This document shows, piece after piece, positions 8,097-64,000 of a DNA stretch of 64,000 nucleotides. The stretch lies in assembly GCA_030681595.1 (NCBI GenBank), contig JAUXSB010000014.1, forward strand, positions 109,071 through 173,070, in the 5' to 3' direction. This stretch comes from Candidatus Omnitrophota bacterium. GTDB lineage: Bacteria; Omnitrophota; Gorgyraeia; Ghiorseimicrobiales; Ghiorseimicrobiaceae. Position 1 is the stretch's first letter; each line of letters begins with the position of its first letter. The notes below the pieces were generated by a model. The model was not told where the DNA came from and did no database searches. It saw nothing but the letters and a program-made list of their open reading frames with translations. A program made the translations under genes and the position numbers.

Positions 8097-8172
<76 letters not shown>

Positions 8173-8219
8173 ATATCTTAAATACTTAGCCCTTAACCGT
8201 CGGCTCTTTAATCTGTTTT

Positions 8220-8301
8220 TGGGCGGAAGAGGATTTGAACCTCCAAGGGTTACCCCAACAGCTCCTAAGGCTGCCGCGTATGCCAATTCCGCCATCCGCC
8301 C
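8220..8301 (-). tRNA. tRNA-Leu (TAG), class II with a long variable arm
   Basis: Reverse complement: GGGCGGATGGCGGAATTGGCATACGCGGCAGCCTTAGGAGCTGTTGGGGTAACCCTTGGAGGTTCAAATCCTCTTCCGCCCA. Confidence 0.85.
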
Positions 8302-8399
8302 CCTCTTTTTAATAGCGTATAGCGGATAGGGGATAGCGTTTAGTTATGTTTTTTAGAAATTCGATAACTATACGCTAAACGCTATCCGCTAAAATTAAA

Positions 8400-8472
8400 T
8401 GAGCCGCCCGTGACTCGAACACGGCACACTCGGCTTAAAAAGCCGATGCTCTACCAGATGAGCTAGCGGCCC
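8400..8472 (-). tRNA. tRNA-Lys (TTT)
   Basis: Reverse complement: GGGCCGCTAGCTCATCTGGTAGAGCATCGGCTTTTTAAGCCGAGTGTGCCGTGTTCGAGTCACGGGCGGCTCA. Anticodon loop TTTTTAA. Confidence 0.88.
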
Positions 8473-9853: not shown

Positions 9854-10378
9854 CTATTCTCCCAGCTGATACCTGGAAAACCTTCTGACGACAATATTCT
9901 CGCCGGTCTTGGCAATAACCGACGTCAGATAATCGCTGATAGTCAGGCTTGCGTCCTTAATAAAAGCCTGCTCTAACAAACAGGCGTGCTTATAAAAATC
10001 ATTGCCTTCCTTACCTTCCTTGGCAATAACCTCCTGCGGCACTTCCTCTTTTTTAATATATTTGGGATTCATTGCCGCAATCTGCATCGCTACATCCTTG
10101 ACAAATCTCTGGAATTCCTCGTTTCTGGCGACAAAGTCTGTCTCACAATTTATCTCAACCAATACTCCGATTTTACCGCCGGAATGAACATAAGATTCAA
10201 CTTTACCCTGGCGCGCTGCCCGGTCAGCCTTCTTTGCCGCAAGCTGCATGCCTCTTTTTTTTAATATCTCAATCGCCGCCTTCATGTCTCCCTTGGCTTC
10301 TTCCAGCGCTTTTTTGCACTCGATTACGCCACAGGAAGTAAGCTGGCGCAGTTCTTTTACAGATTCATTGAAATTCAT
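9854..10378 (-). CDS. tsf: Elongation factor Ts (short form)
   Basis: 174 aa. LRQLTSCGVIECKKALEEA...TDFVARNEEF. Confidence 0.88.
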   Translation of the reverse strand: MNFNESVKELRQLTSCGVIECKKALEEAKGDMKAAIEILKKRGMQLAAKKADRAARQGKVESYVHSGGKIGVLVEINCETDFVARNEEFQRFVKDVAMQIAAMNPKYIKKEEVPQEVIAKEGKEGNDFYKHACLLEQAFIKDASLTISDYLTSVIAKTGENIVVRRFSRYQLGE

Positions 10379-11280
10379 TTCTTGACTCTCCTTTTTGTTT
10401 CTACTCCTTTTACTTCCTCTTTCGGGCGGAGTTTAGGCCTCTGCGGGCGGCTCTCATCACCGTCAGCCTTAATCAACTCCTCCAGCTCTTCTGCTTTTTC
10501 CTTGATAATGTCGCTACCCGGCTCTGCTGGGCCGAACGCGTCTGAGGCTTCGGCAAGCTTATCTTCCTTGACCAGCTCTTTACCCAGGTACTCCAGAAAA
10601 CGCTTCCTGCCCTCAATAATGCTGTCGGCGATCATAGTGGTAACCAGCCTGATTGATTTTACGGCGTCATCATTACCCGGTATAGGATAAGTAATCTTGT
10701 CGGGATCACAATTAGTATCGATAAGCGCGCATATCGGAATAGCCAGTTTGCTTGCTTCCTGCACCGATATCTCTTCTGACTTAGAATCAATGACAAACAA
10801 AGCCTGCGGCAAGCGCTCCATATCCATAATGCCTTCAAAAGTCCTCTTTAATTTATCCATTTCCTTGGTAAGGCGGGAAACTTCCTTCTTGGCAAGCTTG
10901 TCAAAAGTACCGTCAGTCCTCATTTTTTCCAAGTCTTTATACCTTTTTATGCTCTTTTTTACGGTAGCAAAATTAGTTAAAAGCCCTCCCAGCCAACGGT
11001 GGCTTATATAAAACATGCCGCACCGCCTAGCCTCTTCCTTAATTACATCCTGTGCCTGTTTTTTGGTGCCGACAAAGAGGACGGTTGAGCCTTGCGCGGT
11101 TAAATCCGCTAAAAAATCCTGCGCGGCCCTTAGTGCCTCTTGGGTTTTTTCCAGGTCAATAATGTATATCGAATTTTTTTTACCGAAGACGTATTTTTTC
11201 ATCTTCGGGTTCCAGCGTTTGGTTTGATGGCCGAAATGCACCCCAGCCTCCAATAATTCTCTAAGTAATTCTATTGCCAA
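10375..11280 (-). CDS. rpsB: 30S ribosomal protein S2 with a charged C-terminal extension
   Basis: MLEAGVHFGHQTKRWNPKM is a conserved S2 N-terminus. It overlaps tsf by 4 nt. Confidence 0.95.
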   Translation of the reverse strand: MAIELLRELLEAGVHFGHQTKRWNPKMKKYVFGKKNSIYIIDLEKTQEALRAAQDFLADLTAQGSTVLFVGTKKQAQDVIKEEARRCGMFYISHRWLGGLLTNFATVKKSIKRYKDLEKMRTDGTFDKLAKKEVSRLTKEMDKLKRTFEGIMDMERLPQALFVIDSKSEEISVQEASKLAIPICALIDTNCDPDKITYPIPGNDDAVKSIRLVTTMIADSIIEGRKRFLEYLGKELVKEDKLAEASDAFGPAEPGSDIIKEKAEELEELIKADGDESRPQRPKLRPKEEVKGVETKRRVKK

Positions 11281-17203: not shown

Positions 17204-17234
17204 AAATTACACAGGTTATTCTATGTGTAAGAAA

Positions 17235-17696
17235 TTAATTTGTACCACCTGTTTCTTGACCAGACTTAATCTTCGTAACCTTATCGTCTTTATCAAAATC
17301 AATCGTTATCTGCAGTTGTGAACTACTAAAACCCTCAACAGGTGTTCCGATTATCTCCCATCCACCGAAAGTTAACACATCCATTACCCCGTGTCCTATT
17401 GCTCTGCCCGCACTTGGTGAGTTACCTCTTTGAATTTCAAAAATTTCTTTTCTACCTGTATCAGTAGTTAATGTTTGCGCTGGTTGACCTAATAATAATA
17501 TAACTTCATCTCTTGGTTGCCCTACATGTAACGACCCTAAATCTACTTCTCTTTTTCCGTGTAATGCCATCATTACTGAACAGCCGGAAAATACAAATAT
17601 TAAACAACACACCAATACGAAAAAACCAATTCCTTCCTTCCTAAACATGCTCCCTCCTTTTTTGTTAATTATAGCGATGAAATCCTGTATAATCAA
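17235..17696 (-). CDS. Putative lipoprotein (probable start at the internal Met, about 17648)
   Basis: MFRKEGIGFFVLVCCLIFVFSGC is a signal peptide with a lipobox-like FSGC. Confidence 0.55.
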   Translation of the reverse strand: MIIQDFIAIINKKGGSMFRKEGIGFFVLVCCLIFVFSGCSVMMALHGKREVDLGSLHVGQPRDEVILLLGQPAQTLTTDTGRKEIFEIQRGNSPSAGRAIGHGVMDVLTFGGWEIIGTPVEGFSSSQLQITIDFDKDDKVTKIKSGQETGGTN

Positions 17697-17768
17697 TAAG
17701 AAGTATTGTGTTCATAGAATCCGCTGCAGGCGCATAGATTGTATCAGGTTTATTTATCCCTTCCATTT

Positions 17769-18503
17769 TTATTTTTTCCTACTGATAACTACTAAATGCC
17801 TTCCATAAAGTAATTCATCGGACAATAAAATTTTTGCGATTCTATCATATGATATATTGCCTTTTTTCCTTGCTCTTTTACATTTCGACAATAATTGTAA
17901 ATATATAATGATTTTTAAGGGAAATGTCCATAATTTTAATCCCGGATAATAAGAAGTTGTGGCAACTTTCTCAATCTCAAAGCCATTATTTTTCAAAAAA
18001 TATTCCAATTCATGCATTCGCAAAGGACAAATATGTAAATACGCGGCCGCGTCACCACCTACGCTTTGAGCTTGTTCTAATAACGGCTCACGAAAATATT
18101 CCCATGCTCCTTCGAAAAGAAAACGCATCCGCGACTTGATGTTAAGGATATTAGGAGTTGTCAAAATAAAAACTCCTCCCGGCTTAAGCACTCTGTAGGC
18201 TTTTCTAATTATTGATTGCGGATTTTCTAAATGCTCGATAAGCTCAAGGCAGGACACATAATCAAAATAGTCATCATCATACGGCAGCGCTTCTTTATTA
18301 AAATCAATTTCCTTGAAATTAACTGTCCGGGGAAATGCAAAATATTTCCCCAAAACATCGCAAGCATAAGATTGAAAACCTTCCCTTGCCAACATGTTTG
18401 GCAGATCGCCCTTTCCTGTGCCAATATCTAAAAATTTACCTCTCTTCTCCGTTCTTAATAGCTCAAATACTCTCTCTATCGGGTTAGCTAATTTTTTCTT
18501 CAT
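17769..18503 (-). CDS. Class I SAM-dependent methyltransferase
   Basis: FLDIGTGKGDL is motif I. 244 aa. Confidence 0.8.
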   Translation of the reverse strand: MKKKLANPIERVFELLRTEKRGKFLDIGTGKGDLPNMLAREGFQSYACDVLGKYFAFPRTVNFKEIDFNKEALPYDDDYFDYVSCLELIEHLENPQSIIRKAYRVLKPGGVFILTTPNILNIKSRMRFLFEGAWEYFREPLLEQAQSVGGDAAAYLHICPLRMHELEYFLKNNGFEIEKVATTSYYPGLKLWTFPLKIIIYLQLLSKCKRARKKGNISYDRIAKILLSDELLYGRHLVVISRKK

Positions 18504-27818: not shown

Positions 27819-27842
27819 AAATGCGACGTAACTGATAAGTAC

Positions 27843-27909
27843 GAATTGAACCCCACACCCAGTTACTACGAAGAAACGCTACGAAGTATCTGGGTGTGGG
27901 GTAAATTCA
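27843..27909. repeat. Palindromic intergenic repeat element (REP/MITE-like family 1), copy 1
   Basis: GAATTGAACCCCACACCCAG...CTGGGTGTGGGGTAAATTCA. It is about 85% identical to 28487-28553. Confidence 0.8.
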
Positions 27910-27955
27910 GACAGATAACTTACATTCGCTTCCACTCTGTAAGTTATGTCTTTAT

Positions 27956-28420: not shown

Positions 28421-28486
28421 CTGTTTCCTCCCTTCAATGACGACATAATTTACGAAAGGCGTAAGCCAAACGTAAATTATGTGTCG

Positions 28487-28553
28487 GAATTGAACCCCAC
28501 GCCCAGTTACTTCGAAGCGTTTCTGCGACGTATCTGGGTGTGGGGTAAATTCA
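28487..28553. repeat. Palindromic intergenic repeat element (family 1), copy 2
   Basis: GAATTGAACCCCACGCCCAG...CTGGGTGTGGGGTAAATTCA. Confidence 0.8.
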
Positions 28554-28600
28554 TCCAAATAAGTTATCTCGGCTATCGCCTCCATAACTTACGGCTTCAT

Positions 28601-29809: not shown

Positions 29810-29887
29810 CCCGCCACAAAGCATTGGCGGGTTAATTCCGGCAGACAAGTTATATCGTTTTCACTCTATAACTTGTGCCGTCATTAA
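29810..29887. repeat. MITE/REP-like element (family 2), copy 1: a GC-rich hairpin, then TTAATTCCGGCA ... TGCCGTCATTAA terminal inverted repeats
   Basis: CCCGCCACAAAGCATTGGCGGG TTAATTCCGGCA gacaagttatatcgttttcactctataacttg TGCCGTCATTAA. It is homologous to 53207-53323. Confidence 0.6.
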
Positions 29888-29919
29888 AAATTAAACCCCT
29901 GAATAAAAATCTTCAGGGG
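29882..29919 (-). terminator. Intrinsic terminator forming the expression platform of the FMN riboswitch
   Basis: Minus-strand RNA: CCCCUGAAGAUUUUUAUUCAGGGG followed by UUUAAUUUUUAAU. Confidence 0.7.
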
Positions 29920-29974: not shown

Positions 29975-30112
29975 CTGTATCTATATCTTCTTCCATCTAG
30001 ACTTTAACTATCGGCCCCGGAACCTCACCGGGTCTGTCCGCCACAAAGCATTGGCGGACTCGCGGGCTTTACCGCCGGCCGGGAATTTCACCCTGCCCCG
30101 AAGATGTTAATA
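29975..30112 (-). promoter_or_regulatory. FMN riboswitch (RFN element) aptamer
   Basis: Minus-strand RNA: CUUCGGGGCAGGGUGAAAUUCCCGGCCGGCGGUAAAGCCCGCGAG...GAUAGUUAAAGUCUAGAUGGAAGAAGA. This matches the conserved RFN core. Confidence 0.8.
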
Positions 30113-46832: not shown

Positions 46833-48737
46833 TTAGTTATTGCCGGCCCGGCTTCGTTCTGGCGGGGAAATTGGCCATTGGCCATTGATTTTTTTAATCC
46901 AGACCAAGAGCATCGAAATCGCCGCAGGCGTTACCCCGGATATACGGCTGGCTTGACCTAAATTTATCGGCTTAAATTTAAGCAATTTTTCTTTTATCTC
47001 GCGCGAAAGGCCATTGATAGAACCGTAATTTAAATCTTGCGGCAGTTTTATTTTCTCTAAATTCTTAAACTTCTCTACTTCCACAAGCTGCCGCTGAATA
47101 AAACCGGCATATTTAACCTCAATTTCTACTTGGCTTAAGGCAAATTTAGGGATATCTAATTTAATGTGATCTAAATTTTTTATATCCGCCAAGGTTACCT
47201 GCGGCCTTTTTAGAATTTCTTCCAAGGTAAACGCCTTCTCTATAGGCGAAGTACCCAATCGGCTTAGATTATCGTTTATTTGCTTGGTTGGTTTAATCCG
47301 TGTTGATTGCAAAAATTTTATCCCTTCCTTGATTGCCTTTTCTTTCATCTGTGCCAAAAAGTAATCTTTCTTACTGACTAAACCTATTTTATAACCAATC
47401 TTTCTTAAGCGTAAATCCGCGTTATCTTCACGTAAAATCAGCCGGTATTCTACCCGTGAGGTAAACATCCGATAGGGTTCAGGCGTTCCTTTAGTAGTTA
47501 AGTCGTCAATTAGTACGCCAATGTAACTTGTTGAGCGGTCTAAAACCAACGGTTCGCTATCTTTAACTCTTAAGGCGGAATTTATTCCGGCAATTAATCC
47601 TTGTGCCGCCGCTTCCTCATAACCGGTAGTGCCGTTAATCTGTCCGGCAAGGTATAAATTCTTAATCAGTTTGGTTTCCAGCGTCGAAAAAAGTTGCGTG
47701 GGCTCAACTACCGTATGTTCAATACCATAACCAAAACGTACCACCTCTACATTTTCTAATCCCTCTATCGAATGTAATATTTTTAACTGTACGTCTTCGG
47801 GCAGGCTGGTAGATATTCCATTTGGATATACTTCATCGGTTTTTAACCCTTGTGGCTCTAAAAATATCTGATGCCTTTCTTTATCGCTAAACCTAACAAT
47901 TTTATCCTCAATTGACGGGCAATATCTCACTCCTGTTGCCTTAATTACTCCCGCATAAAGCGGCGAGCGATTTAGATTATCCAAAATAATCTTATGCGTA
48001 TTTTTATTGGTATAAGTAATGTAACAAGGAACCTGCTTTTGGGTTAATTTTTTCGTAGAAAATGAAAATGGTTTGGGAGGCTCATCCCCATATTGCACAA
48101 TCAGCCGCGAGAAATCTATCGTGTTCTTGTCTAAGCGCGGGCAGGTGCCGGTTTTAAACCTTAACAGATTAAAACCCAAGCTTTTTAAATCCTCCCCCAA
48201 GCCAATAGATGCCGGCTCATTTATCCTGCCTCCGGAGAAATGCTTCATCCCAACATGAATTACGCCGTCTAAAAAAGTCCCGGGTGTCGCTACCAGGCAA
48301 TCAGCCGCGATCTCTTCGCCTTTCTCTGTAATTATTCCGTAAATTTGGTTATTTTTGACAATTAATTTCTTTACTTCTGCCTCTTTTATGCGCAAGCCGC
48401 CTTGAGATTTAACGATTTTTTGCATATAGCGGCTGTATTTATCCATGTCTATCTGGCAGCGCGATGACTGCACTGCTTCGCCTTTTGAGGCATTTAAAAT
48501 ACGAAACTGTATTCCGCAGGCATCCGCGGCGCGGCCCATTTGGCCGCCTAAGACATCCAGCTCCTTGACTAACTGCCCTTTACCGACGCCGCCGATAGCC
48601 GGGTTACAACTCATCTTCCCGATAGTTTTACTATCAAGCGTAAGCATAAGCGTAGCACAACCCAAGCGCGCACTCGCTAGAGCGGCCTCAATACCAGCAT
48701 GCCCTGCCCCAATAATTATTACATCGTATTTTTCCAT
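46833..48737 (-). CDS. mnmG: tRNA uridine-5-carboxymethylaminomethyl synthesis enzyme MnmG (GidA)
   Basis: YDVIIIGAGHAGIEAA is the FAD motif. 634 aa. Confidence 0.95.
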   Translation of the reverse strand: MEKYDVIIIGAGHAGIEAALASARLGCATLMLTLDSKTIGKMSCNPAIGGVGKGQLVKELDVLGGQMGRAADACGIQFRILNASKGEAVQSSRCQIDMDKYSRYMQKIVKSQGGLRIKEAEVKKLIVKNNQIYGIITEKGEEIAADCLVATPGTFLDGVIHVGMKHFSGGRINEPASIGLGEDLKSLGFNLLRFKTGTCPRLDKNTIDFSRLIVQYGDEPPKPFSFSTKKLTQKQVPCYITYTNKNTHKIILDNLNRSPLYAGVIKATGVRYCPSIEDKIVRFSDKERHQIFLEPQGLKTDEVYPNGISTSLPEDVQLKILHSIEGLENVEVVRFGYGIEHTVVEPTQLFSTLETKLIKNLYLAGQINGTTGYEEAAAQGLIAGINSALRVKDSEPLVLDRSTSYIGVLIDDLTTKGTPEPYRMFTSRVEYRLILREDNADLRLRKIGYKIGLVSKKDYFLAQMKEKAIKEGIKFLQSTRIKPTKQINDNLSRLGTSPIEKAFTLEEILKRPQVTLADIKNLDHIKLDIPKFALSQVEIEVKYAGFIQRQLVEVEKFKNLEKIKLPQDLNYGSINGLSREIKEKLLKFKPINLGQASRISGVTPAAISMLLVWIKKINGQWPISPPERSRAGNN

Positions 48738-48749
48738 ATTTTAATTTAA

Positions 48750-48779
48750 CCCGTTGTACACCCCTGGGGTGTACAACGG
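48750..48779. repeat. REP-like 30-bp perfect palindrome (3' flank of the RAYT gene)
   Basis: CCCGTTGTACACCCCTGGGGTGTACAACGG. Confidence 0.85.
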
Positions 48780-49466
48780 CTAAAGCTCGCTTCCTTCTTC
48801 AAGAATAAGCTTTTTTATGTCGTCCAGATGCCGCTGATAAGAAATCATATCCTCTACAAACTTCTTATACGATACCGGCTCTATATCCAAAACGCCTTTA
48901 TAATTACAGACTCTATTCTCTACGCCGTCATATGAACTATATTCAAGATAAGAAGAATCTCTCCAATCTTGCGGCTTATCAACTATGCGCGCGGTTGCCG
49001 GATTCAAATGAACATATCTCGTCAAATGAAGTAGCTGCTCATCGCTATCAACCAATACCGCCTTAAATTTGCTTTCCCAAAGCGGCCCTTTACGGCCATG
49101 TTTTATATTAAAATAACGGCTGTAGCTATTAAGTAAATTGCTCATAAAAAATGAAATGCCTCTATCTTCTAATTGTTTTAAAATTAAGTGCAGGTGGGTC
49201 GGCATAAAGCAATAGGCAATTATCTCAACAAGCTTTTTACTTTTTCCCGCTACCGATTCAAAATGCTTATCAAACCCCTCTTTCTGCGTACGCTCTATTT
49301 CCAAAAATCTAGAAAATTTATCCGGTTGATTTTCAAGCTGATAATATTTTAACATCCGCTTCATTCTTGAAAAATCGGCGTCACTATTAAATATCTTAAA
49401 TAAAGCAATACTCTTGCTAAAAACATGATAAACTTCTCCTGTTGCCAATATTTCTTTTCTACGCAT
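48780..49466 (-). mobile_element. REP-associated tyrosine transposase (RAYT; IS200/IS605-like Y1 HUH transposase TnpA_REP)
   Basis: The HUH motif is MPTHLHLIL. A Tyr-containing region SYSRYF follows. The gene is flanked on both sides by the same palindrome. Confidence 0.75.
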
Positions 49467-49488
49467 ACCCTACCCCTTTATCATTACC

Positions 49489-49523
49489 AACCCGTTGTAC
49501 ACCCCTGGGGTGTACAACGGGTT
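49489..49523. repeat. REP-like palindrome (5' flank of the RAYT gene)
   Basis: AACCCGTTGTACACCCCTGGGGTGTACAACGGGTT. Confidence 0.85.
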
Positions 49524-49695
49524 ATATTATAATGGAAATAAGAGCGGCAAACAAGCGATATTAATTTGGCTTGTAAAAGCTAAAATACCTTATATAATTG
49601 ATATAAATACTGCTAACACGCTTTGCATAACTGCTCTGCCGCCTTTTGGCTTCGACTATCAACAGGTAAGTTTAAATATTATGGACAAATAAATA

Positions 49696-50385
49696 ATGGA
49701 TAATCCAATATTTATACTATTTGGCACAATAATTTTAGCCCTTACGTTGCTTTGCTTGCTAATATATGCAAGGAAGAATAAAAAATTTTTAAATATTAGC
49801 GATGGTTTCTTCCAAGCTATCACATCATCAATTATTTCTGGCATACTCGTTGGATTAGTCGTAGCATCAGCATCGTCTTATTTTGCATATTCATTATGGC
49901 AGTTTCAAGAAAAGAAAACTGAAGGAAAAGAAAAATATGCTATCGCTAGATTTATGTGTGTCAGCATTAAAAGGGAAATTAAAACATCAAAACAGTTAAT
50001 TGATGCTTTAGATAAAGAAAAAATCAAACCCGGCAAGATGGTTCCACATGGCTTTAAATTCCTACATGATTCTGCATTTTATTCTTCTGCCTGGGAAAAT
50101 ATTGGAATTCTGGATGAAGAAATAATTATTGCTCTAGATGCGTATTATAGGATGATCAAATCATGCCAGGCAATGAGAGATTTTATGTACGAGGAAATAA
50201 AACGTGTTAACGAAGATACAGCTTTAGCTAAAGGTTCTATCGATGCTTATATTTATCAAGTAAACCGTCTAATTGCAACAGGAGAAAAAGTTTTAAAACT
50301 TATAAATGAGAAATATCCACAAAAGGATGTAAAAAACACCTGCGAAGAATTCTTGCCGAAAGTTAGTTTTTTTGAATTAAAGTAA
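49696..50385 (+). CDS. Hypothetical two-TM membrane protein encoded in an AT-rich (about 30% GC) segment
   Basis: Two N-terminal TM helices followed by a roughly 150-aa soluble domain with no recognisable motif. Composition differs markedly from neighbouring genes. Confidence 0.55.
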   Translation: MDNPIFILFGTIILALTLLCLLIYARKNKKFLNISDGFFQAITSSIISGILVGLVVASASSYFAYSLWQFQEKKTEGKEKYAIARFMCVSIKREIKTSKQLIDALDKEKIKPGKMVPHGFKFLHDSAFYSSAWENIGILDEEIIIALDAYYRMIKSCQAMRDFMYEEIKRVNEDTALAKGSIDAYIYQVNRLIATGEKVLKLINEKYPQKDVKNTCEEFLPKVSFFELK

Positions 50386-53206: not shown

Positions 53207-53323
53207 CCCGCTTCGTAAGATGCGTTAAAATTATATTCTATAATTTTAACGCGCTTCGCGGGATTAATTCCGGCATACGAATTATATCAGCCTACGGCTC
53301 TCATAATTCGTGCCGTCATTAAC
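53207..53323. repeat. MITE/REP-like element (family 2), copy 2, at the 3' end of nrdJ
   Basis: CCCGCTTCGTAAGATGCG...CGCGCTTCGCGGG ATTAATTCCGGCA tacgaattatatcagcctacggctctcataattcg TGCCGTCATTAA. Confidence 0.6.
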
Positions 53324-55571
53324 ACTTAGTAAACCCACACGCCTGGCACTTAATACATCCTTCTTCATGCCTAAGCGCTCCGCCACAGTCAGGGCAAACA
53401 CCGATGATATTCCATTCTTCTTTTTTCTCGGCATAAACTGTATCTGTATGAGGGCTACCGTGTAATGTTTTATCCAACAGCCTCTTTTCAATTACCCGGG
53501 CAATAGCATCAGCACAAGAAAAAATCCTCGCCCCCTTTTCCCATGATGGAGACGGGCACCTTATGCCCTTTAACTGCTCAATCATTGATTTTAAATCTAT
53601 GCCTGAACGAAGCGCAAGCGATACCAGCCTGCTTATCGCCTCAAGTTGGCTAGCCGCACATCCGCCGGCTTTACCCATCTGAGTAAACACCTCAAAAGGA
53701 CGGCCTTCTCCATCGGAATTTATGGTAACATAAAGATTGCCGCAACCCGTAGACACCTTAGTGGTTGTGCCTAAAGTAACCTCCGGCCTTGGGCGCGGGC
53801 CTACCTTAATACCGGCTATTTCTTTTTCCCTACCAGCAGGCCTGGCTTCAATCTTTCCGATATTTAATACCTGCTCCTGACGGGATTTATCCCGGTAAAT
53901 TGTGACCCCCTTACATCCCATCTGGTATGCCAATAAGTAAGCCGTCTTTACATCGTCAATAGTTGCTTCCTGCGGAAAATTTACGGTTTTACTCACCGCA
54001 TTATCGGTATATTTCTGAAATACTGCCTGCATCTTAATATGCCACTCAGGCGCAATATCATGAGCGGTGACGAATATACGCTTTACATCATCGGGGATTT
54101 CCGCGATATCTTTTGCGCTGCCGCTATCGGCAATCTTTTCCATCAACGCGCGTGAATAAAAACCCCGTTTTTTAGCCGCCTCTTCAAATACGCTTTCAAC
54201 TTCTACCAGCTTATCATTATCCATTACATTTCTGTAATACGAAAGGGCAAAAATCGGCTCAATACCAGAAGAACACGGCCCGGCGATAATACTGATGGTG
54301 CCGGTTGGCGCGACAGTAGTAAGCGTAGCATTACGCATTTTGCCGTTTTTCTTAGCGTAAATACTTTGTTTAAACGCGGGAAATTCCCCTTTTTCTTCGG
54401 CTAAAAGCTTCGATTCTGCGCGCGCCTCTTTTACGATTTCAGACATTATTTTTTCGGCAAGTTTCAGCGCCTCGTCAGAATCATAAGGAATCCCGAGGCG
54501 GCAAAGCAGGCTACCCCAGCCCATTACGCCCAAGCCGATCTTACGCGTCCTCTTGGTATTTTCTTCAATTTCTTTTAAAGGGAATTTATTAATATCAATA
54601 ACATTATCCAGAAACCTTACGGCGATACGCGTTAATTTTTTTAGCTTATCACAGTCAATTTCGTATTTGGCTCCTGATTCTCTTGCCAAGAGAGACAGAT
54701 TAATGGAGCCAAGGTTACAAGACTCATAAGGCAGAAGCACCTGTTCTCCGCAAGGGTTGGTCGATTCATATTCTCCTAAAAATGGAGTGGGATTGAATTC
54801 ATTCATCCGGTCAATAAAAATAACTCCAGGTTCGCCGTTTTTATGCGCCTGCTTTACAATCAAATCAAAAACCTCTTTAGTGTTAAGGCGGCCCACCGGC
54901 TTTTTTGTATGGGGGTCGGTTATATCGTAATCCTCAGCCCTCCCTAACTTCTTCATAAAATCGTCGGTTAAGGATACGGAAATATTAAAATTAGTAATAT
55001 CTTTATTGCTTTCTTTACATTGGATAAATTCTAAAATGTCCGGGTGGTCACACCTTAAAATGCCCATGTTTGCACCGCGCCTGGTTCCACCCTGCTTAAC
55101 TGCCTGTGTTGCCGCGTCAAAAACTTTCATAAAAGAAACCGGCCCGGAAGCAATGCCACCGGTAGATTTAACCATGCTGTTTTTAGGGCGCAGGCGCGAA
55201 AAAGAAAATCCTGTGCCGCCACCGGATTTATGAATGAGGCTTGCGCTCTTTAAAGCCTCAAATATCGCTTCCATAGAATCCTCTATAGGAAGCACATAAC
55301 AGGCAGACAGCTGCCCTAATTCACGGCCGGCATTCATTAAGGTCGGCGAATTAGGCATAAATTCCAAATTAGAAATAATGGAATAAAAGTCCTCTTCTAT
55401 TCTCTTTATATCGGCTGGCTTCTTGCCGTATAACTTTTCTGCCTGCGCTATGGTATGCGCGACACGGCGGAACAAATCTTGCGCACTCTCCATAACCTCG
55501 CCTTCTGCGTTTTTCTTAAGATAACGCCTTTCTAAAACCTTAAGTGCATTGTCAGATAATTTTACAGTCAT
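53319..55571 (-). CDS. nrdJ: Adenosylcobalamin-dependent (class II) ribonucleotide reductase
   Basis: 750 aa. The ten-stranded alpha/beta barrel catalytic core has NPCGEQ; a C-terminal Cys-rich tail is present. Confidence 0.92.
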   Translation of the reverse strand: MTVKLSDNALKVLERRYLKKNAEGEVMESAQDLFRRVAHTIAQAEKLYGKKPADIKRIEEDFYSIISNLEFMPNSPTLMNAGRELGQLSACYVLPIEDSMEAIFEALKSASLIHKSGGGTGFSFSRLRPKNSMVKSTGGIASGPVSFMKVFDAATQAVKQGGTRRGANMGILRCDHPDILEFIQCKESNKDITNFNISVSLTDDFMKKLGRAEDYDITDPHTKKPVGRLNTKEVFDLIVKQAHKNGEPGVIFIDRMNEFNPTPFLGEYESTNPCGEQVLLPYESCNLGSINLSLLARESGAKYEIDCDKLKKLTRIAVRFLDNVIDINKFPLKEIEENTKRTRKIGLGVMGWGSLLCRLGIPYDSDEALKLAEKIMSEIVKEARAESKLLAEEKGEFPAFKQSIYAKKNGKMRNATLTTVAPTGTISIIAGPCSSGIEPIFALSYYRNVMDNDKLVEVESVFEEAAKKRGFYSRALMEKIADSGSAKDIAEIPDDVKRIFVTAHDIAPEWHIKMQAVFQKYTDNAVSKTVNFPQEATIDDVKTAYLLAYQMGCKGVTIYRDKSRQEQVLNIGKIEARPAGREKEIAGIKVGPRPRPEVTLGTTTKVSTGCGNLYVTINSDGEGRPFEVFTQMGKAGGCAASQLEAISRLVSLALRSGIDLKSMIEQLKGIRCPSPSWEKGARIFSCADAIARVIEKRLLDKTLHGSPHTDTVYAEKKEEWNIIGVCPDCGGALRHEEGCIKCQACGFTKC

Positions 55572-61689: not shown

Positions 61690-62985
61690 TTACTTTACCG
61701 GGTAATTTTTCCATAATTTTTTTAACATATGATATGCCGCCCTCGGCAACCTCTTGTTTAAATCCCCTTCTTTCTGTTTAAGGATGCTCACAATACCAAA
61801 CCACTCTTCATTCATATTTAAATTATTTTCCGCTTTATTATCCAAATAATAGGCGCCCTGCGACCAGCCAGCCTCGGTATCATGCACTTTCCAGTTCTCC
61901 GGGTTATCAGTATTGTGCTTCCACCATTCATCATTCCATTCAAAGATAAAACCACCCAAGCAATTTCCGGCGCCCTCTTTGCCAAAACCGGAATTCTTAA
62001 AAATTTCCTTCCACTGTGATTCCAGGAAAAAAGACTGCATTCCTTCGTCTTCGGCTTTTTTAAAACTATTATAGCTGTCGGCTCCGAATTCTATCAATAC
62101 CAGCGGTTTATCAAACATTTTCTTAAGCCCGTTGAAAATATTGCCGAATGTTTTCCCCCGGTACATTAACACCCCCACTATGTCCACATCCGGAGAAAAT
62201 TTATCCGCCACATCTAAAAATCCTAATTCGCCGTTTCCTAAGACTACCGGGTGCTCGGGGTCAATCTTATGTATTTCGCGCGCTATTTCATTTACAAAAG
62301 AATAATATATCTTTGCTCTTATATTTGCGCGCTCGGAAACTTCGGCCTTATCCGCCTCGGGACAAGACCAAGGATTAACCCTGCCAGAAAAAGAATAATT
62401 ATTTTCATTGCCTAAGATCCAACACAATATGCCTTTTTCGTCCTTATAGGTTTTTACCATATCAATTACTTCTTTTTTTATTCTGGCCCTAAATTCCACG
62501 CTGCTATAACAAGGCTGGGGGTATTCCCAGAAACCCAACCAATGCCCTAATGCCGTTCTTATGCCGTATTTTTCATAGAGGACGCGGATTGCTTTTTTTA
62601 AACCGGATGGATTAACGCTATCTCTATAAAGGCGGACTGTATTAACACCTATCTCCCGCATTAATTTTCCGTCTAAGTCCCATGGTTCAAACTTATCTAA
62701 CCCCAAGTCATAATCGTAACCTTCGCCTACCGGAGCGGGATTATAGCAGACACCTTTAATAAAATATGGCCTGCCTTCTACAAAAAGCTGAAAACGGCTA
62801 TCTTTTGTTTTTTTTACCTTAACTTCCGGCTCCCGGCATAAAAATATAACCCACCAAGACACGCCGATGATAAGCAAAACGAAAATAGTAAAACGCCAGA
62901 ACCTAAGATTAAATCTTAGGTTCTGGCGCCTTAGCCAATGATGTTTTATTTTATGATACTTATGCTTATTCGTACCTAATCTCAT
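61690..62985 (-). CDS. Membrane-anchored TIM-barrel glycoside hydrolase (GH5-like clan GH-A), putative
   Basis: An N-terminal TM helix. VNTVRLY and ILGNENN (a candidate acid/base NE) and FEWNDEWW fit a clan GH-A barrel. Confidence 0.5.
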   Translation of the reverse strand: MRLGTNKHKYHKIKHHWLRRQNLRFNLRFWRFTIFVLLIIGVSWWVIFLCREPEVKVKKTKDSRFQLFVEGRPYFIKGVCYNPAPVGEGYDYDLGLDKFEPWDLDGKLMREIGVNTVRLYRDSVNPSGLKKAIRVLYEKYGIRTALGHWLGFWEYPQPCYSSVEFRARIKKEVIDMVKTYKDEKGILCWILGNENNYSFSGRVNPWSCPEADKAEVSERANIRAKIYYSFVNEIAREIHKIDPEHPVVLGNGELGFLDVADKFSPDVDIVGVLMYRGKTFGNIFNGLKKMFDKPLVLIEFGADSYNSFKKAEDEGMQSFFLESQWKEIFKNSGFGKEGAGNCLGGFIFEWNDEWWKHNTDNPENWKVHDTEAGWSQGAYYLDNKAENNLNMNEEWFGIVSILKQKEGDLNKRLPRAAYHMLKKLWKNYPVK

Positions 62986-64000
62986 CCAAATAGAAAGTAG
63001 CGCCTTCGGGATTTACATCCACGTTGGTCGCCCAGCAGAAACCGCCGATAATCGAAGAAAAATCTTTACCCTTCAAATCAACAGTATATTGTTTCCAGTC
63101 CTTGGTCAATATTACCGGGCCGACAGCGGCAACATCGGTATCCGAATATTCCCCGAATAGGCCTCCTGCCTTAAACTCCTCAATACGCTCCCCTCCTTTT
63201 GCGCCGCGCGCCCAAAAGGTAAGCCTTGTGGCATTGGAAAGGTCGTATCCGCCTTTTTTATCGCCCCAATTATTAGCCGGATTCTGCCAATAAATCCCCG
63301 CCCAGCGCGCGCCTTGCGCGCCTTTTCCGGAATAGGCAATCTTAATACAACCGTTACCCATATAAGGGTCTTCAACGGACCCGATATCAATCTTGATATC
63401 GCCGTAATCACCCATCCAACCGGAAGGTATATAATGGTTACTTACGGAGCCTTTATCTAAATAGACATAGAAAGGCATTTTTTCCGCACCCTTAACTTCA
63501 GGCTTAATAGCGGGGTCAAATTCATATTTTATATCGTCAAAATAAAACTCAGCTCCTTCGGCATTGCTATCTGCATTCATTACCCAGCCAAATCCGCCCG
63601 AGATATAAGAAAGGTTCTTCTCGGATAAATTTACCGTATATTGCTGCCAGTCGCTTCCCAAAACAATCGGGCCCATCTCTATTTCATCGGAATCGGCGTA
63701 GACGCCTTTAATTCCGCCGATAATCACTTTATCAACAACTTCCCCTCCTTTTGCGCCGCGCGCCCAAAAGGTAAGCTTTGTCATGCCCGTTAGATCAAAT
63801 CCTCCGTTTTTTGAACCCCAATTGTTAGCCGGGTTCTGCCAGTACGTACCCGCCCAACCCTGATTATTTGACTTTTTTGCGGAATAAATAAACTGAATAC
63901 AGCTTGAGCCGGAATGCGGGCTATTAGCGAATTCATCATTAATTTTTATATCTCCGTAATCACCCATCCACCCCGAAGGTATGTAATGGTTATCGGGGGA
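62966..64000 (-). CDS. Tandem-repeat beta-sandwich, putative carbohydrate-binding-module protein. The 5' end lies beyond the window, and a third repeat begins at the edge.
   Basis: Two repeats of about 165 aa: GWMGDYGDIKI...YWQNPANNWG...LTFWARGAKGGE...FY-D-I-YE. The reverse complement of the last 30 nt starts another IPSGWMGD repeat. Confidence 0.5.
   Translation of the reverse strand, partial: SPDNHYIPSGWMGDYGDIKINDEFANSPHSGSSCIQFIYSAKKSNNQGWAGTYWQNPANNWGSKNGGFDLTGMTKLTFWARGAKGGEVVDKVIIGGIKGVYADSDEIEMGPIVLGSDWQQYTVNLSEKNLSYISGGFGWVMNADSNAEGAEFYFDDIKYEFDPAIKPEVKGAEKMPFYVYLDKGSVSNHYIPSGWMGDYGDIKIDIGSVEDPYMGNGCIKIAYSGKGAQGARWAGIYWQNPANNWGDKKGGYDLSNATRLTFWARGAKGGERIEEFKAGGLFGEYSDTDVAAVGPVILTKDWKQYTVDLKGKDFSSIIGGFCWATNVDVNPEGATFYLDEIRYE

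Follow-up and report, generated by a model that had tools for sequence, protein, structure and literature searches.

Class 2 of the Y1 transposase superfamily is recognized by a Y---NP tyrosine motif (PMC6006769), and its described members are among the closest known systems to the locus considered here. TnpA-Y1 subclass 2.1 (Quentin et al. 2018, PMC6006769) corresponds to the group 1 RAYTs (REP-associated tyrosine transposases, REP standing for repetitive extragenic palindrome) of Bertels (PMC5581495) and to the TIRYT proteins and TIRtrons of Di Nocera et al. (2013, PMC3733652), and no REP-like structures were found next to subclass 2.1 genes by Quentin et al. (PMC6006769). Subclass 2.2 contains E. 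coli RayT (TnpA-REP) and its REPtron, represented by structure PDB 4ER8 (PMC3479197, PMC8266576), in a species whose genome of 4.6 Mb contains about 600 REPs, a density of roughly 1 per 8 kb (PMC8266576). The benefit of RAYTs to the host and the origin of REPtrons from IS200-like elements are still open questions (PMC8266576, PMC5581495). The present study analyzes a 64,000-nucleotide stretch of a Candidatus Omnitrophota genome (contig JAUXSB010000014.1, positions 109,071 to 173,070; hereafter the window), in which a gene for a 228-residue Y1 protein lies between two copies of one palindrome, directly upstream of mnmG. Patterns detected are best explained, with a probability that we would put at roughly 0.65, by a single-copy, vertically inherited RAYT-like enzyme with local cognate hairpins and no REP population, forming with its hairpins a bounded, deletable cassette. 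The features concerned are as follows, in window coordinates.

48780..49466, minus strand: Y1 HUH gene (RAYT-like, class-2), an open reading frame (ORF) of 228 amino acids with an ATG start
Codons 49188-49196, minus strand: HUH motif M-P-T-H91-L-H93-L-I-L, in the 228-residue ORF
Codons 48999-49016, minus strand: tyrosine motif R-Y151-V-H-L-N-P (YVHLNP), in the 228-residue ORF
49489..49523, no strand assigned: gene-upstream hairpin, a perfect 17+1+17 palindrome AACCCGTTGTACACCCC-N-GGGGTGTACAACGGGTT
48746..48784, no strand assigned: gene-downstream hairpin with a perfect core at 48751-48779, 13 nt before the mnmG ATG
46833..48737, minus strand: mnmG (gidA), directly downstream of the Y1 gene and co-oriented, used as synteny anchor and evolutionary yardstick
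49526..49531, minus strand: TATAAT (-10-like) box, 2 nt upstream of the gene-upstream hairpin, read from the sequence

A preliminary description of the window, made from its letters and predicted ORFs, had claimed identical palindromes of 30-31 bp on both sides of the ORF, and this is borne out, with a shared direct repeat that is actually 32 nt long (48748-48779 = 49489-49520). The 30-mer CCCGTTGTACACCCCTGGGGTGTACAACGG has exact matches only at 48750-48779 and 49491-49520, and nothing else in the window resembles it at up to 3 mismatches (0 matches in 100 shuffles). As a query string the palindrome is TGTACACCCCNGGGGTGTACA, and the generic family hairpin is CAC[CT][CT]C-N-G[GA][GA]GTG. The upstream hairpin ends 22 nt ahead of the Y1 ATG and folds as single-stranded DNA at -19 kcal/mol (z = -6.6 to -6.9), and the downstream hairpin folds at -15.6 to -15.9 kcal/mol, its foot mismatched and its outer foot pairs lost because the TAG stop codon of the Y1 gene overlaps the foot. 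For both hairpins together the range is -16 to -19 kcal/mol (z = -5.4 to -6.9), and 0 of 200 shuffles fold as well. The central base is identical on the same strand in both copies, so that the window hairpins are formally direct repeats. On its 5′ side the palindrome has T-A-A-C-C, belonging to the foot of the stem, and the sequence of the 3′ arm is GGGGTGTA, with GAGGTGNA as the counterpart in relatives. The 5′ GT[AG]G tag (GTAG or GTGG) by which canonical REPs are defined (PMC6006769) is absent at the hairpins of the window locus and of the family, a terminator scan found neither a terminator-like site nor a T-run at the hairpins, and no Rfam family matched them. The terminal inverted repeat motif GGGGWSAS by which subclass 2.1 loci are recognized does not occur here, each flank being itself a hairpin.

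The same layout recurs across the family. Flanks were scanned at 80 further loci, counting non-redundant family loci and using a gap-free hairpin criterion of at least 9 pairs, and such hairpins were present in 59/79 upstream and 59/76 downstream flanks, compared with 54/600 control segments from the same loci. Upstream and downstream cores matched each other, within 2/19 positions, in 51 of the 75 loci with both flanks. The upstream hairpin typically ends 10-50 nt ahead of the ATG, and the downstream one starts at -6 to +20 relative to the stop codon, which it often contains. The 5′ half of the hairpin consists of TAACC, 5-9 variable pairs and CAC(C/T)(C/T)C, followed by a formal 1-nt or 3-nt loop, and the 3′ half consists of G(G/A)(G/A)GTG, the complement of the variable pairs and GGTTA. 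Sequence conservation reaches 86-98% in the top four pairs, and the middle of the stem is free to vary yet remains 88-99% paired. Among 12 orthologous hairpins from mnmG-linked loci, 92% of cells were paired and 12 of 16 pairs had changed on both sides, values reached by 0 of 500 shuffles, with slid controls at about 40%. These comparisons show that compensatory substitutions keep the two hairpins evolving in concert, both with one another and with the locus. Stem mismatches carry no sense-strand wobble bias (10 G:T vs 11 A:C), and this, together with the lack of a T-run and of an Rfam match, favours a strand-symmetric constraint at the DNA level over one at the RNA level. Inverted hairpin doublets resembling REPINs (REP doublets forming hairpins) or BIMEs (bacterial interspersed mosaic elements) flank the Y1 homologs of seven loci (L017, L031, L061, L063, L068, L078, and L082).

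The sequence available holds no dispersed REP or REPIN population maintained by the enzyme; its hairpins are found at the gene, joined now and then by a third in a nearby intergenic region. Searches of about 70 homologous loci, each with the hairpin core of that locus and with no more than 3 mismatches allowed, recovered 12 extra copies across the family, all 0.3-2.5 kb from the gene, and none farther than 2.5 kb from the gene in 314,849 bases of family loci. The window palindrome is likewise absent from about 7 kb more of the source genome lying beyond the left window end (contig L095). A genome-collection scan, in which the source metagenome-assembled genome (MAG) was not included, gave 10 matches, about the chance level, of which only one, from a Berkelbacteria genome, resembles the element. 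The suggestion in the preliminary description that other palindromes of the window are the REP population of this enzyme has to be dropped, as these are unrelated in sequence and lack the family hairpin motif; one of them is part of a separate repeat in the rib operon. It had also named, as an outcome that would speak against its RAYT assignment, a palindrome confined to this locus, and that outcome matches the available sequence, the 64 kb holding just the 2 copies next to the gene. One relative (L002) has a third hairpin, ACCGTTGTACACCCCTGGGGTGTACAACGGGTT, at 1893-1925, one small ORF away from its Y1 gene; this hairpin matches the palindrome type of the window, and the relative's own flanking hairpins differ from it (CACCTC top). 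Genes bracketed by a third hairpin were considered as possible cargo and the idea was rejected, since they are a mix of ORFans and housekeeping genes (PheT, a sugar transferase) with no pattern.

The HUH motif (HLHLIL) and downstream tyrosine reported earlier for the 228-residue ORF stand up to alignment: H91, H93, and Y151 are invariant in 120 homologs, as is N155, so that the residues whose lack was to count against the idea are present. H91-L-H93 and Y151 align with HMH and Y115 of E. coli RayT. The profile comparison proposed at that stage also came out in favour, with 32 bits to Pfam PF01797 Y1_Tnp against a cut-off of 23 (E = 1.4e-7, residues 76-153); the NCBIfam equivalog NF047646 REP_Tyr_transpos scored 56 bits, below its cut-off of 80. 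The best match in the PDB is 4ER8, i.e. E. coli TnpA-REP, at E = 0.03 with the single sequence and E = 5.9e-5 with the family profile, for which ISDra2 TnpA came next, and hhalign against E. coli RayT gave a probability of 90% with the HUH motif, the tyrosine helix, and the W..SS(Y/F) segment aligned. The AlphaFold2 model used here was built from an alignment of 106 diverse representatives (mean predicted local distance difference test, pLDDT, 95.2), a shallow 30-sequence run (pLDDT 51) having been discarded. Its top Foldseek match is again 4ER8 (E = 6e-7), followed by ISDra2, IS608, and IS200 transposases, and the best 21 PDB matches, all at E <= 8.2e-4, are TnpA-REP, ISDra2, and IS608 TnpA structures. 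With catalytic residues invariant in the 120 homologs and a Y1 fold, the enzyme appears to be an intact Y1 HUH nuclease/ligase, and the window protein is accordingly predicted to be a catalytically intact class-2 Y1 HUH single-stranded DNA endonuclease and ligase. Model and alignment also place a two-helix insertion of about 33 residues (about residues 45-77) before the strand leading into the HUH motif, and the C-terminal tail is formed by two helices (197-225), with no C-terminal helix-turn-helix-like domain (Bac_DnaA_C, HTH_23, HTH_28) found in Pfam at E <= 1.

The protein is on the RAYT side of the superfamily and is closest to TnpA-Y1 subclass 2.1 (TIRYT). The class-2 motif is present as Y151-V-H-L-N155-P156, and against the subclass 2.1 signature (NH[VYF]H, W[EQ] or FQ, Y[IV](E/H)LNP, SS) the window protein reads THLH, LWE, YVHLNP, and SSY; the wider-family consensus is NHFH, LF, YIHLNP, and SSY, the sub-clade of the window having T for N at the first residue. 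Also shared with subclass 2.1 are a length of about 225-235 amino acids, a single-copy gene, and flanking repeats mostly not dispersed in the genome. Identity is 25-31% to two subclass 2.1-like plasmid proteins (L101, L102) and 16% to E. coli RayT over the full-length alignment, or 26% over the 91 columns aligned by hhalign. The family departs from subclass 2.1 in having the two-helix insertion before the HUH strand, in lacking the longer C-terminal segment of the plasmid proteins, for which it has a shorter and different tail with no helix-turn-helix match, in its self-complementary hairpins (CACCYC/GRGGTG top, TAACC/GGTTA foot) in place of GGGGWSAS inverted repeats, and in its occurrence in Omnitrophota and the candidate phyla radiation (CPR) rather than in Proteobacteria or Acidobacteria. 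With this protein architecture and true hairpins with motifs of their own, the locus probably represents an undescribed variant of domesticated Y1 transposase. E. coli RayT is similar in its HUH/Y1 fold and Y---NP motif, in being a single-copy, housekeeping-like gene, and in being bordered by co-evolving cognate palindromes, but it has 165 amino acids compared with 228, and its REPs are genome-wide, with a 5′ GTAG tag, a stem bulge, and BIMEs, whereas the window has 2 copies with a perfect stem and no GTAG. The locus belongs to class 2 of the Y1 superfamily and operates in the manner of a REPtron or TIRtron. It should not be filed as a canonical RAYT, given that it fails on dispersed REPs, on the GT[AG]G tag, and on the NCBIfam equivalog score. 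The RAYT identity proposed in the preliminary description is thus partly supported: the Y1 HUH nature, the Y---NP motif, the best match to 4ER8, and the bracket of cognate hairpins speak for it, and the lack of dispersed copies, the lack of the tag, and the equivalog score speak against it.

Evidence on inheritance comes from the neighbourhood of mnmG. Orthologs in three genomes (L001, L002, L003; 81-87% identity) occupy the same site, directly upstream of mnmG and co-oriented with it, and the adjacency is seen again in a distant relative, L014, in which MnmG is 53-54% and Y1 60% identical. The ratio of nonsynonymous to synonymous divergence (dN/dS) is 0.08-0.13 for Y1, with dS 0.7-1.3, and 0.07-0.12 for mnmG, with dS 0.86-1.39. 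As both quantities match, the Y1 gene has diverged in step with its housekeeping neighbour and under equally strong purifying selection; it is present once and vertically inherited under selection of housekeeping strength. Consistent with this single copy, there is one Y1 gene in the window, and the exact 228-residue protein, annotated in a Candidatus Omnitrophota MAG, forms a protein cluster of 1 member on 1 contig. From synteny, a dN/dS of about 0.1, and the single copy, the gene looks domesticated rather than like that of an insertion sequence (IS), in agreement with the earlier proposal of a domesticated transposase. The Y1 gene and mnmG are probably co-transcribed. The TATAAT box lies directly upstream of the upstream hairpin in L001-L003 as well, and could conceivably be a promoter; the consensus promoter scan did not call the box at 49526..49531 and gave no -35 match.

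In a profile search of 1.84 billion cluster representatives (50% identity clusters), 607 proteins were full-length relatives at E <= 1e-30, so that the family comprises at least 607 clusters at 50% identity; 14,490 matched the profile at E <= 1e-10 and 33,561 at E <= 1e-3, a level that takes in the whole Y1 superfamily. Named relatives are from Omnitrophota and from Berkelbacteria, a CPR lineage. Only distant relatives were found on plasmids (27 of 72,556 records, at no more than 41% identity over the core), a single distant match and no close relative among 50,697 phages, and no homolog in 2.9 million viral contigs. A constant operon partner was considered and rejected: about 50 family members adjoin diverse housekeeping genes, among which UvrA recurs three times, UvrC two or three times, and MnmG twice. 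A role in a defence system was likewise set aside, PADLOC giving no match for the enzyme or for its variable neighbours, and an apparent insertion in two homologous genes (L040 and L041) proved to be an artefact of match coordinates, the ORF being normal. One relative, L020, has two divergent Y1 paralogs 7 kb apart on one contig, at 10001-10669 (+) and 17221-17880 (-), the second with its own matched hairpin pair ATCGCACATC-C-G(A/T)(C/T)GTGCGAT.

That gene and hairpins form a unit is indicated by a sister lineage without the gene. MnmG relatives were collected and their genomic contexts inspected for empty sites, and two contigs sister to L003, L096 and L103, keep the gene order phosphomutase, small ORF, mnmG, Fer4 gene with the Y1 gene absent at the syntenic site. 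MnmG of L096 is 90% identical to that of L003, a neighbour-joining tree places L096 inside the Y1-bearing clade, and the upstream intergenic sequence of L103 is nearly identical to that of L096. Both contigs retain a box similar to that of the window, TATAAG, and have a single hairpin, located after the TATAA box and ahead of the mnmG ATG. The solo hairpin of L103, TAACCGTTTACCGCCTACGAGGCGGGAAACGGTT, is intact (-16.6 kcal/mol), and that of L096, TAACTGTTTGCTACTTACGAGGCGGGAAACGGTT, has the same 3′ arm and a decayed 5′ arm (-4.9 kcal/mol). The more distant L098 and L099, with MnmG 75-76% identical to that of the window, have neither the Y1 gene nor the hairpin at this site. By parsimony, the cassette was deleted precisely between its two hairpins, leaving one behind. 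An empty site with one hairpin shows the Y1 gene to be dispensable and the hairpins to be the limits of a discrete unit that can be removed, and the locus is on balance likely to be a self-contained cassette of hairpin, Y1 gene, and hairpin. The agent of the deletion is not shown by the site, as Y1-catalysed transfer from hairpin to hairpin and replication slippage leave the same product.

Taken together, these patterns suggest that the flanking palindromes are the cognate DNA sites of the Y1 enzyme. The hairpins would be extruded in single-stranded DNA and then bound by the enzyme, which may read the conserved top, CAC(C/T)(C/T)C-N-G(G/A)(G/A)GTG, and the conserved foot, TAACC...GGTTA. Cleavage would pass through a 5′-phosphotyrosine intermediate at Y151, with a metal held by H91 and H93, and the strands would then be resealed or transferred, steps taken from the established chemistry of the family (PMC8266576, PMC3479197). 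A further and tentative idea, which we regard as unlikely, is that the family is a 'proto-REPtron', an element made up of one gene whose Y1 product would join hairpin to hairpin by recombination. The cassette, consisting of the gene and one hairpin, would exit a site where one hairpin remains and would enter a site already carrying, or able to form, a cognate hairpin, so that, in single-stranded DNA, the hairpin would serve for attachment in loose analogy to the attC sites of integron cassettes. Four observations would then be accounted for: the constant order of hairpin, gene, and hairpin across many genomic contexts, the solo hairpin left at the empty site, the third hairpin sometimes seen one gene away, and the hypervariable ORFan slot next to the cassette (described below). 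If true, the family, which is widespread in Omnitrophota and CPR, would be a surviving intermediate that links IS200-type insertion sequences with REP-spreading RAYTs.

Several points weigh against the proposal of a domesticated enzyme with purely local hairpins. About a quarter of the family flanks have no hairpin under the gap-free criterion, and in many loci the orientation of the loop base is mixed, direct or inverted, between copies, so that no IS608-like strand rule can be read from them. The binding and cutting of the hairpins by the protein is argued by analogy with related enzymes. Simple slippage involving the 32-nt direct repeats could account for the loss seen in L096 and L103, and the intact solo hairpin of L103, persisting without the gene, is compatible with a role independent of the enzyme, e.g. 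in the mnmG leader. About 71 kb of the source genome was covered (window plus L095), with which a REP density below about 1 copy per 20 kb is still compatible. Finally, a solitary, perfect intergenic hairpin of the family type, TTAACCGTTGTACACATCGTAGGTGTACAACGGTTG, is found at L007 7170-7205 in Berkelbacteria GW2011_GWA2_35_9 with no Y1 gene within the 8 kb fetched, which implies that some dispersal exists; nothing else points to copies lying apart from a gene. Such a copy, like the occasional third copies near the gene and the REPIN-like doublets of seven loci, would be expected of a classical RAYT or REPtron, in which the enzyme spreads and maintains genome-wide REP/REPIN palindromes and the window merely happens to hold two, and the class-2 Y---NP motif, TnpA-REP as the best structural match, and the cognate palindromes flanking the gene are consistent with this as well. 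We nevertheless consider it quite unlikely, because there are no extra copies in the 64-kb window or the roughly 7 kb of L095, and none in the 315 kb of family loci beyond 2.5 kb from the gene, compared with roughly 1 per 8 kb in E. coli, because the 5′ GT[AG]G tag is lacking and the NCBIfam RAYT equivalog score falls below its cut-off, and because the motif signature is that of subclass 2.1, for which no REPs were found (PMC6006769).

An active IS of the IS200/IS605 type (IS200, IS608, ISDra2; TnpA subclass 1.1) would be a 774-bp unit with subterminal hairpins and a single tnpA, transposing through a single-stranded circle. The locus does share with such elements the catalytic fold and chemistry, a gene bordered by hairpins on one strand, which in the window have the same orientation, and a compact, hairpin-bounded unit of about 0.7-0.8 kb as in IS200; the unit is missing from the same site in a sister lineage, family members occur in many different genomic contexts, and L020 has two paralogs. 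It is not an IS200/IS605 element, however, by its Y motif, which is Y---NP as opposed to the Y---Q of IS200 transposases (PMC6006769), by not being multi-copy (a protein cluster of 1 member on 1 contig), and by its retained synteny. Present activity of this kind appears very unlikely when the vertically inherited gene has a dS of about 1 that matches its housekeeping neighbour and a dN/dS of about 0.1, when the protein has 228 residues with an insertion and a C-terminal tail compared with a core of about 150, and when close relatives are lacking on phages, relatives are lacking on viral contigs, and those on plasmids are distant. Loss of the unit, moreover, leaves one hairpin at the site, whereas IS608-type excision removes both element ends. 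It is highly improbable, lastly, that the palindromes act mainly at the level of RNA or transcription, as leader or trailer stem-loops, processing sites, or insulators of a Y1-mnmG transcript, and not as enzyme substrates. Both hairpins do lie in or beside the transcribed region, the downstream one between the Y1 stop and the mnmG start, and L103 keeps its hairpin intact in the mnmG leader after loss of the gene. Against this, there is no T-run, terminator call, or Rfam match and no sense-strand G:U wobble bias (10 vs 11), one sequence is used on both sides of the gene, and transcription from the -10-like box, if it is one, would start within the 5′ arm of the upstream hairpin. Family members next to unrelated genes still have the conserved top and foot, in keeping with recognition of these motifs by the Y1 protein, the only one present throughout.

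The proposal of a domesticated Y1 enzyme with local hairpins has some wider implications, since a large clade (at least 607 clusters) in poorly studied, small-genome phyla would be keeping an enzyme and two hairpins under strong selection without a repeat population. If this is true, the selected function of this branch cannot be REP dissemination and would lie either in the action of the enzyme on the flanks of its gene or in a trans activity on single-stranded DNA elsewhere. The empty site found in nature, with its single hairpin, offers a concrete reaction product for work in vitro, and the short, perfect hairpins with a conserved top and co-varying middle are an attractive system for the study of hairpin reading by Y1 enzymes.

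There were several further patterns around the cassette. The ORF upstream of it, and divergent from it, differs in each of five otherwise syntenic genomes (window 49696-50385; L001 5329-5826; L002 1926-2261; L003 880-1551; L096 4150-4803); these five ORFs are mutually unrelated and belong to no Pfam or PADLOC family, and the site has the look of an ORFan slot, hypervariable and delimited by the upstream hairpin. In L096 (1-2688) and L099 (67-3591), an intein (Intein_splicing plus LAGLIDADG) is carried by the ribonucleotide reductase gene that lies two genes upstream of mnmG, with none in L001 or L098. A separate repeat in the rib operon of the window is present as two copies of about 97 nt, 80% identical, at 27826-27922 and 28470-28566 (the nusB-ribH and ribH-ribBA spacers), each with a 12-bp stem CCCCACACCCAG/CTGGGTGTGGGG and a 27-nt loop, and a module of about 60 nt from it recurs in partial copies at 29829-29893 and 53261-53328; this repeat is unlike the palindrome that brackets the Y1 gene. 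A flavin mononucleotide (FMN) riboswitch (Rfam RF00050, 115 bits) lies upstream of ribBA at 29981-30109 (-), and 3 tRNA genes are found at 8100-8472 on the minus strand. At 63180-63992 there are two pairs of 50-55-nt segments, 87-90% identical and spaced by 552 nt, mostly within the ORF at 62966-63967, with the last one extending 25 nt beyond its annotated start, which suggests an internal or tandem duplication.

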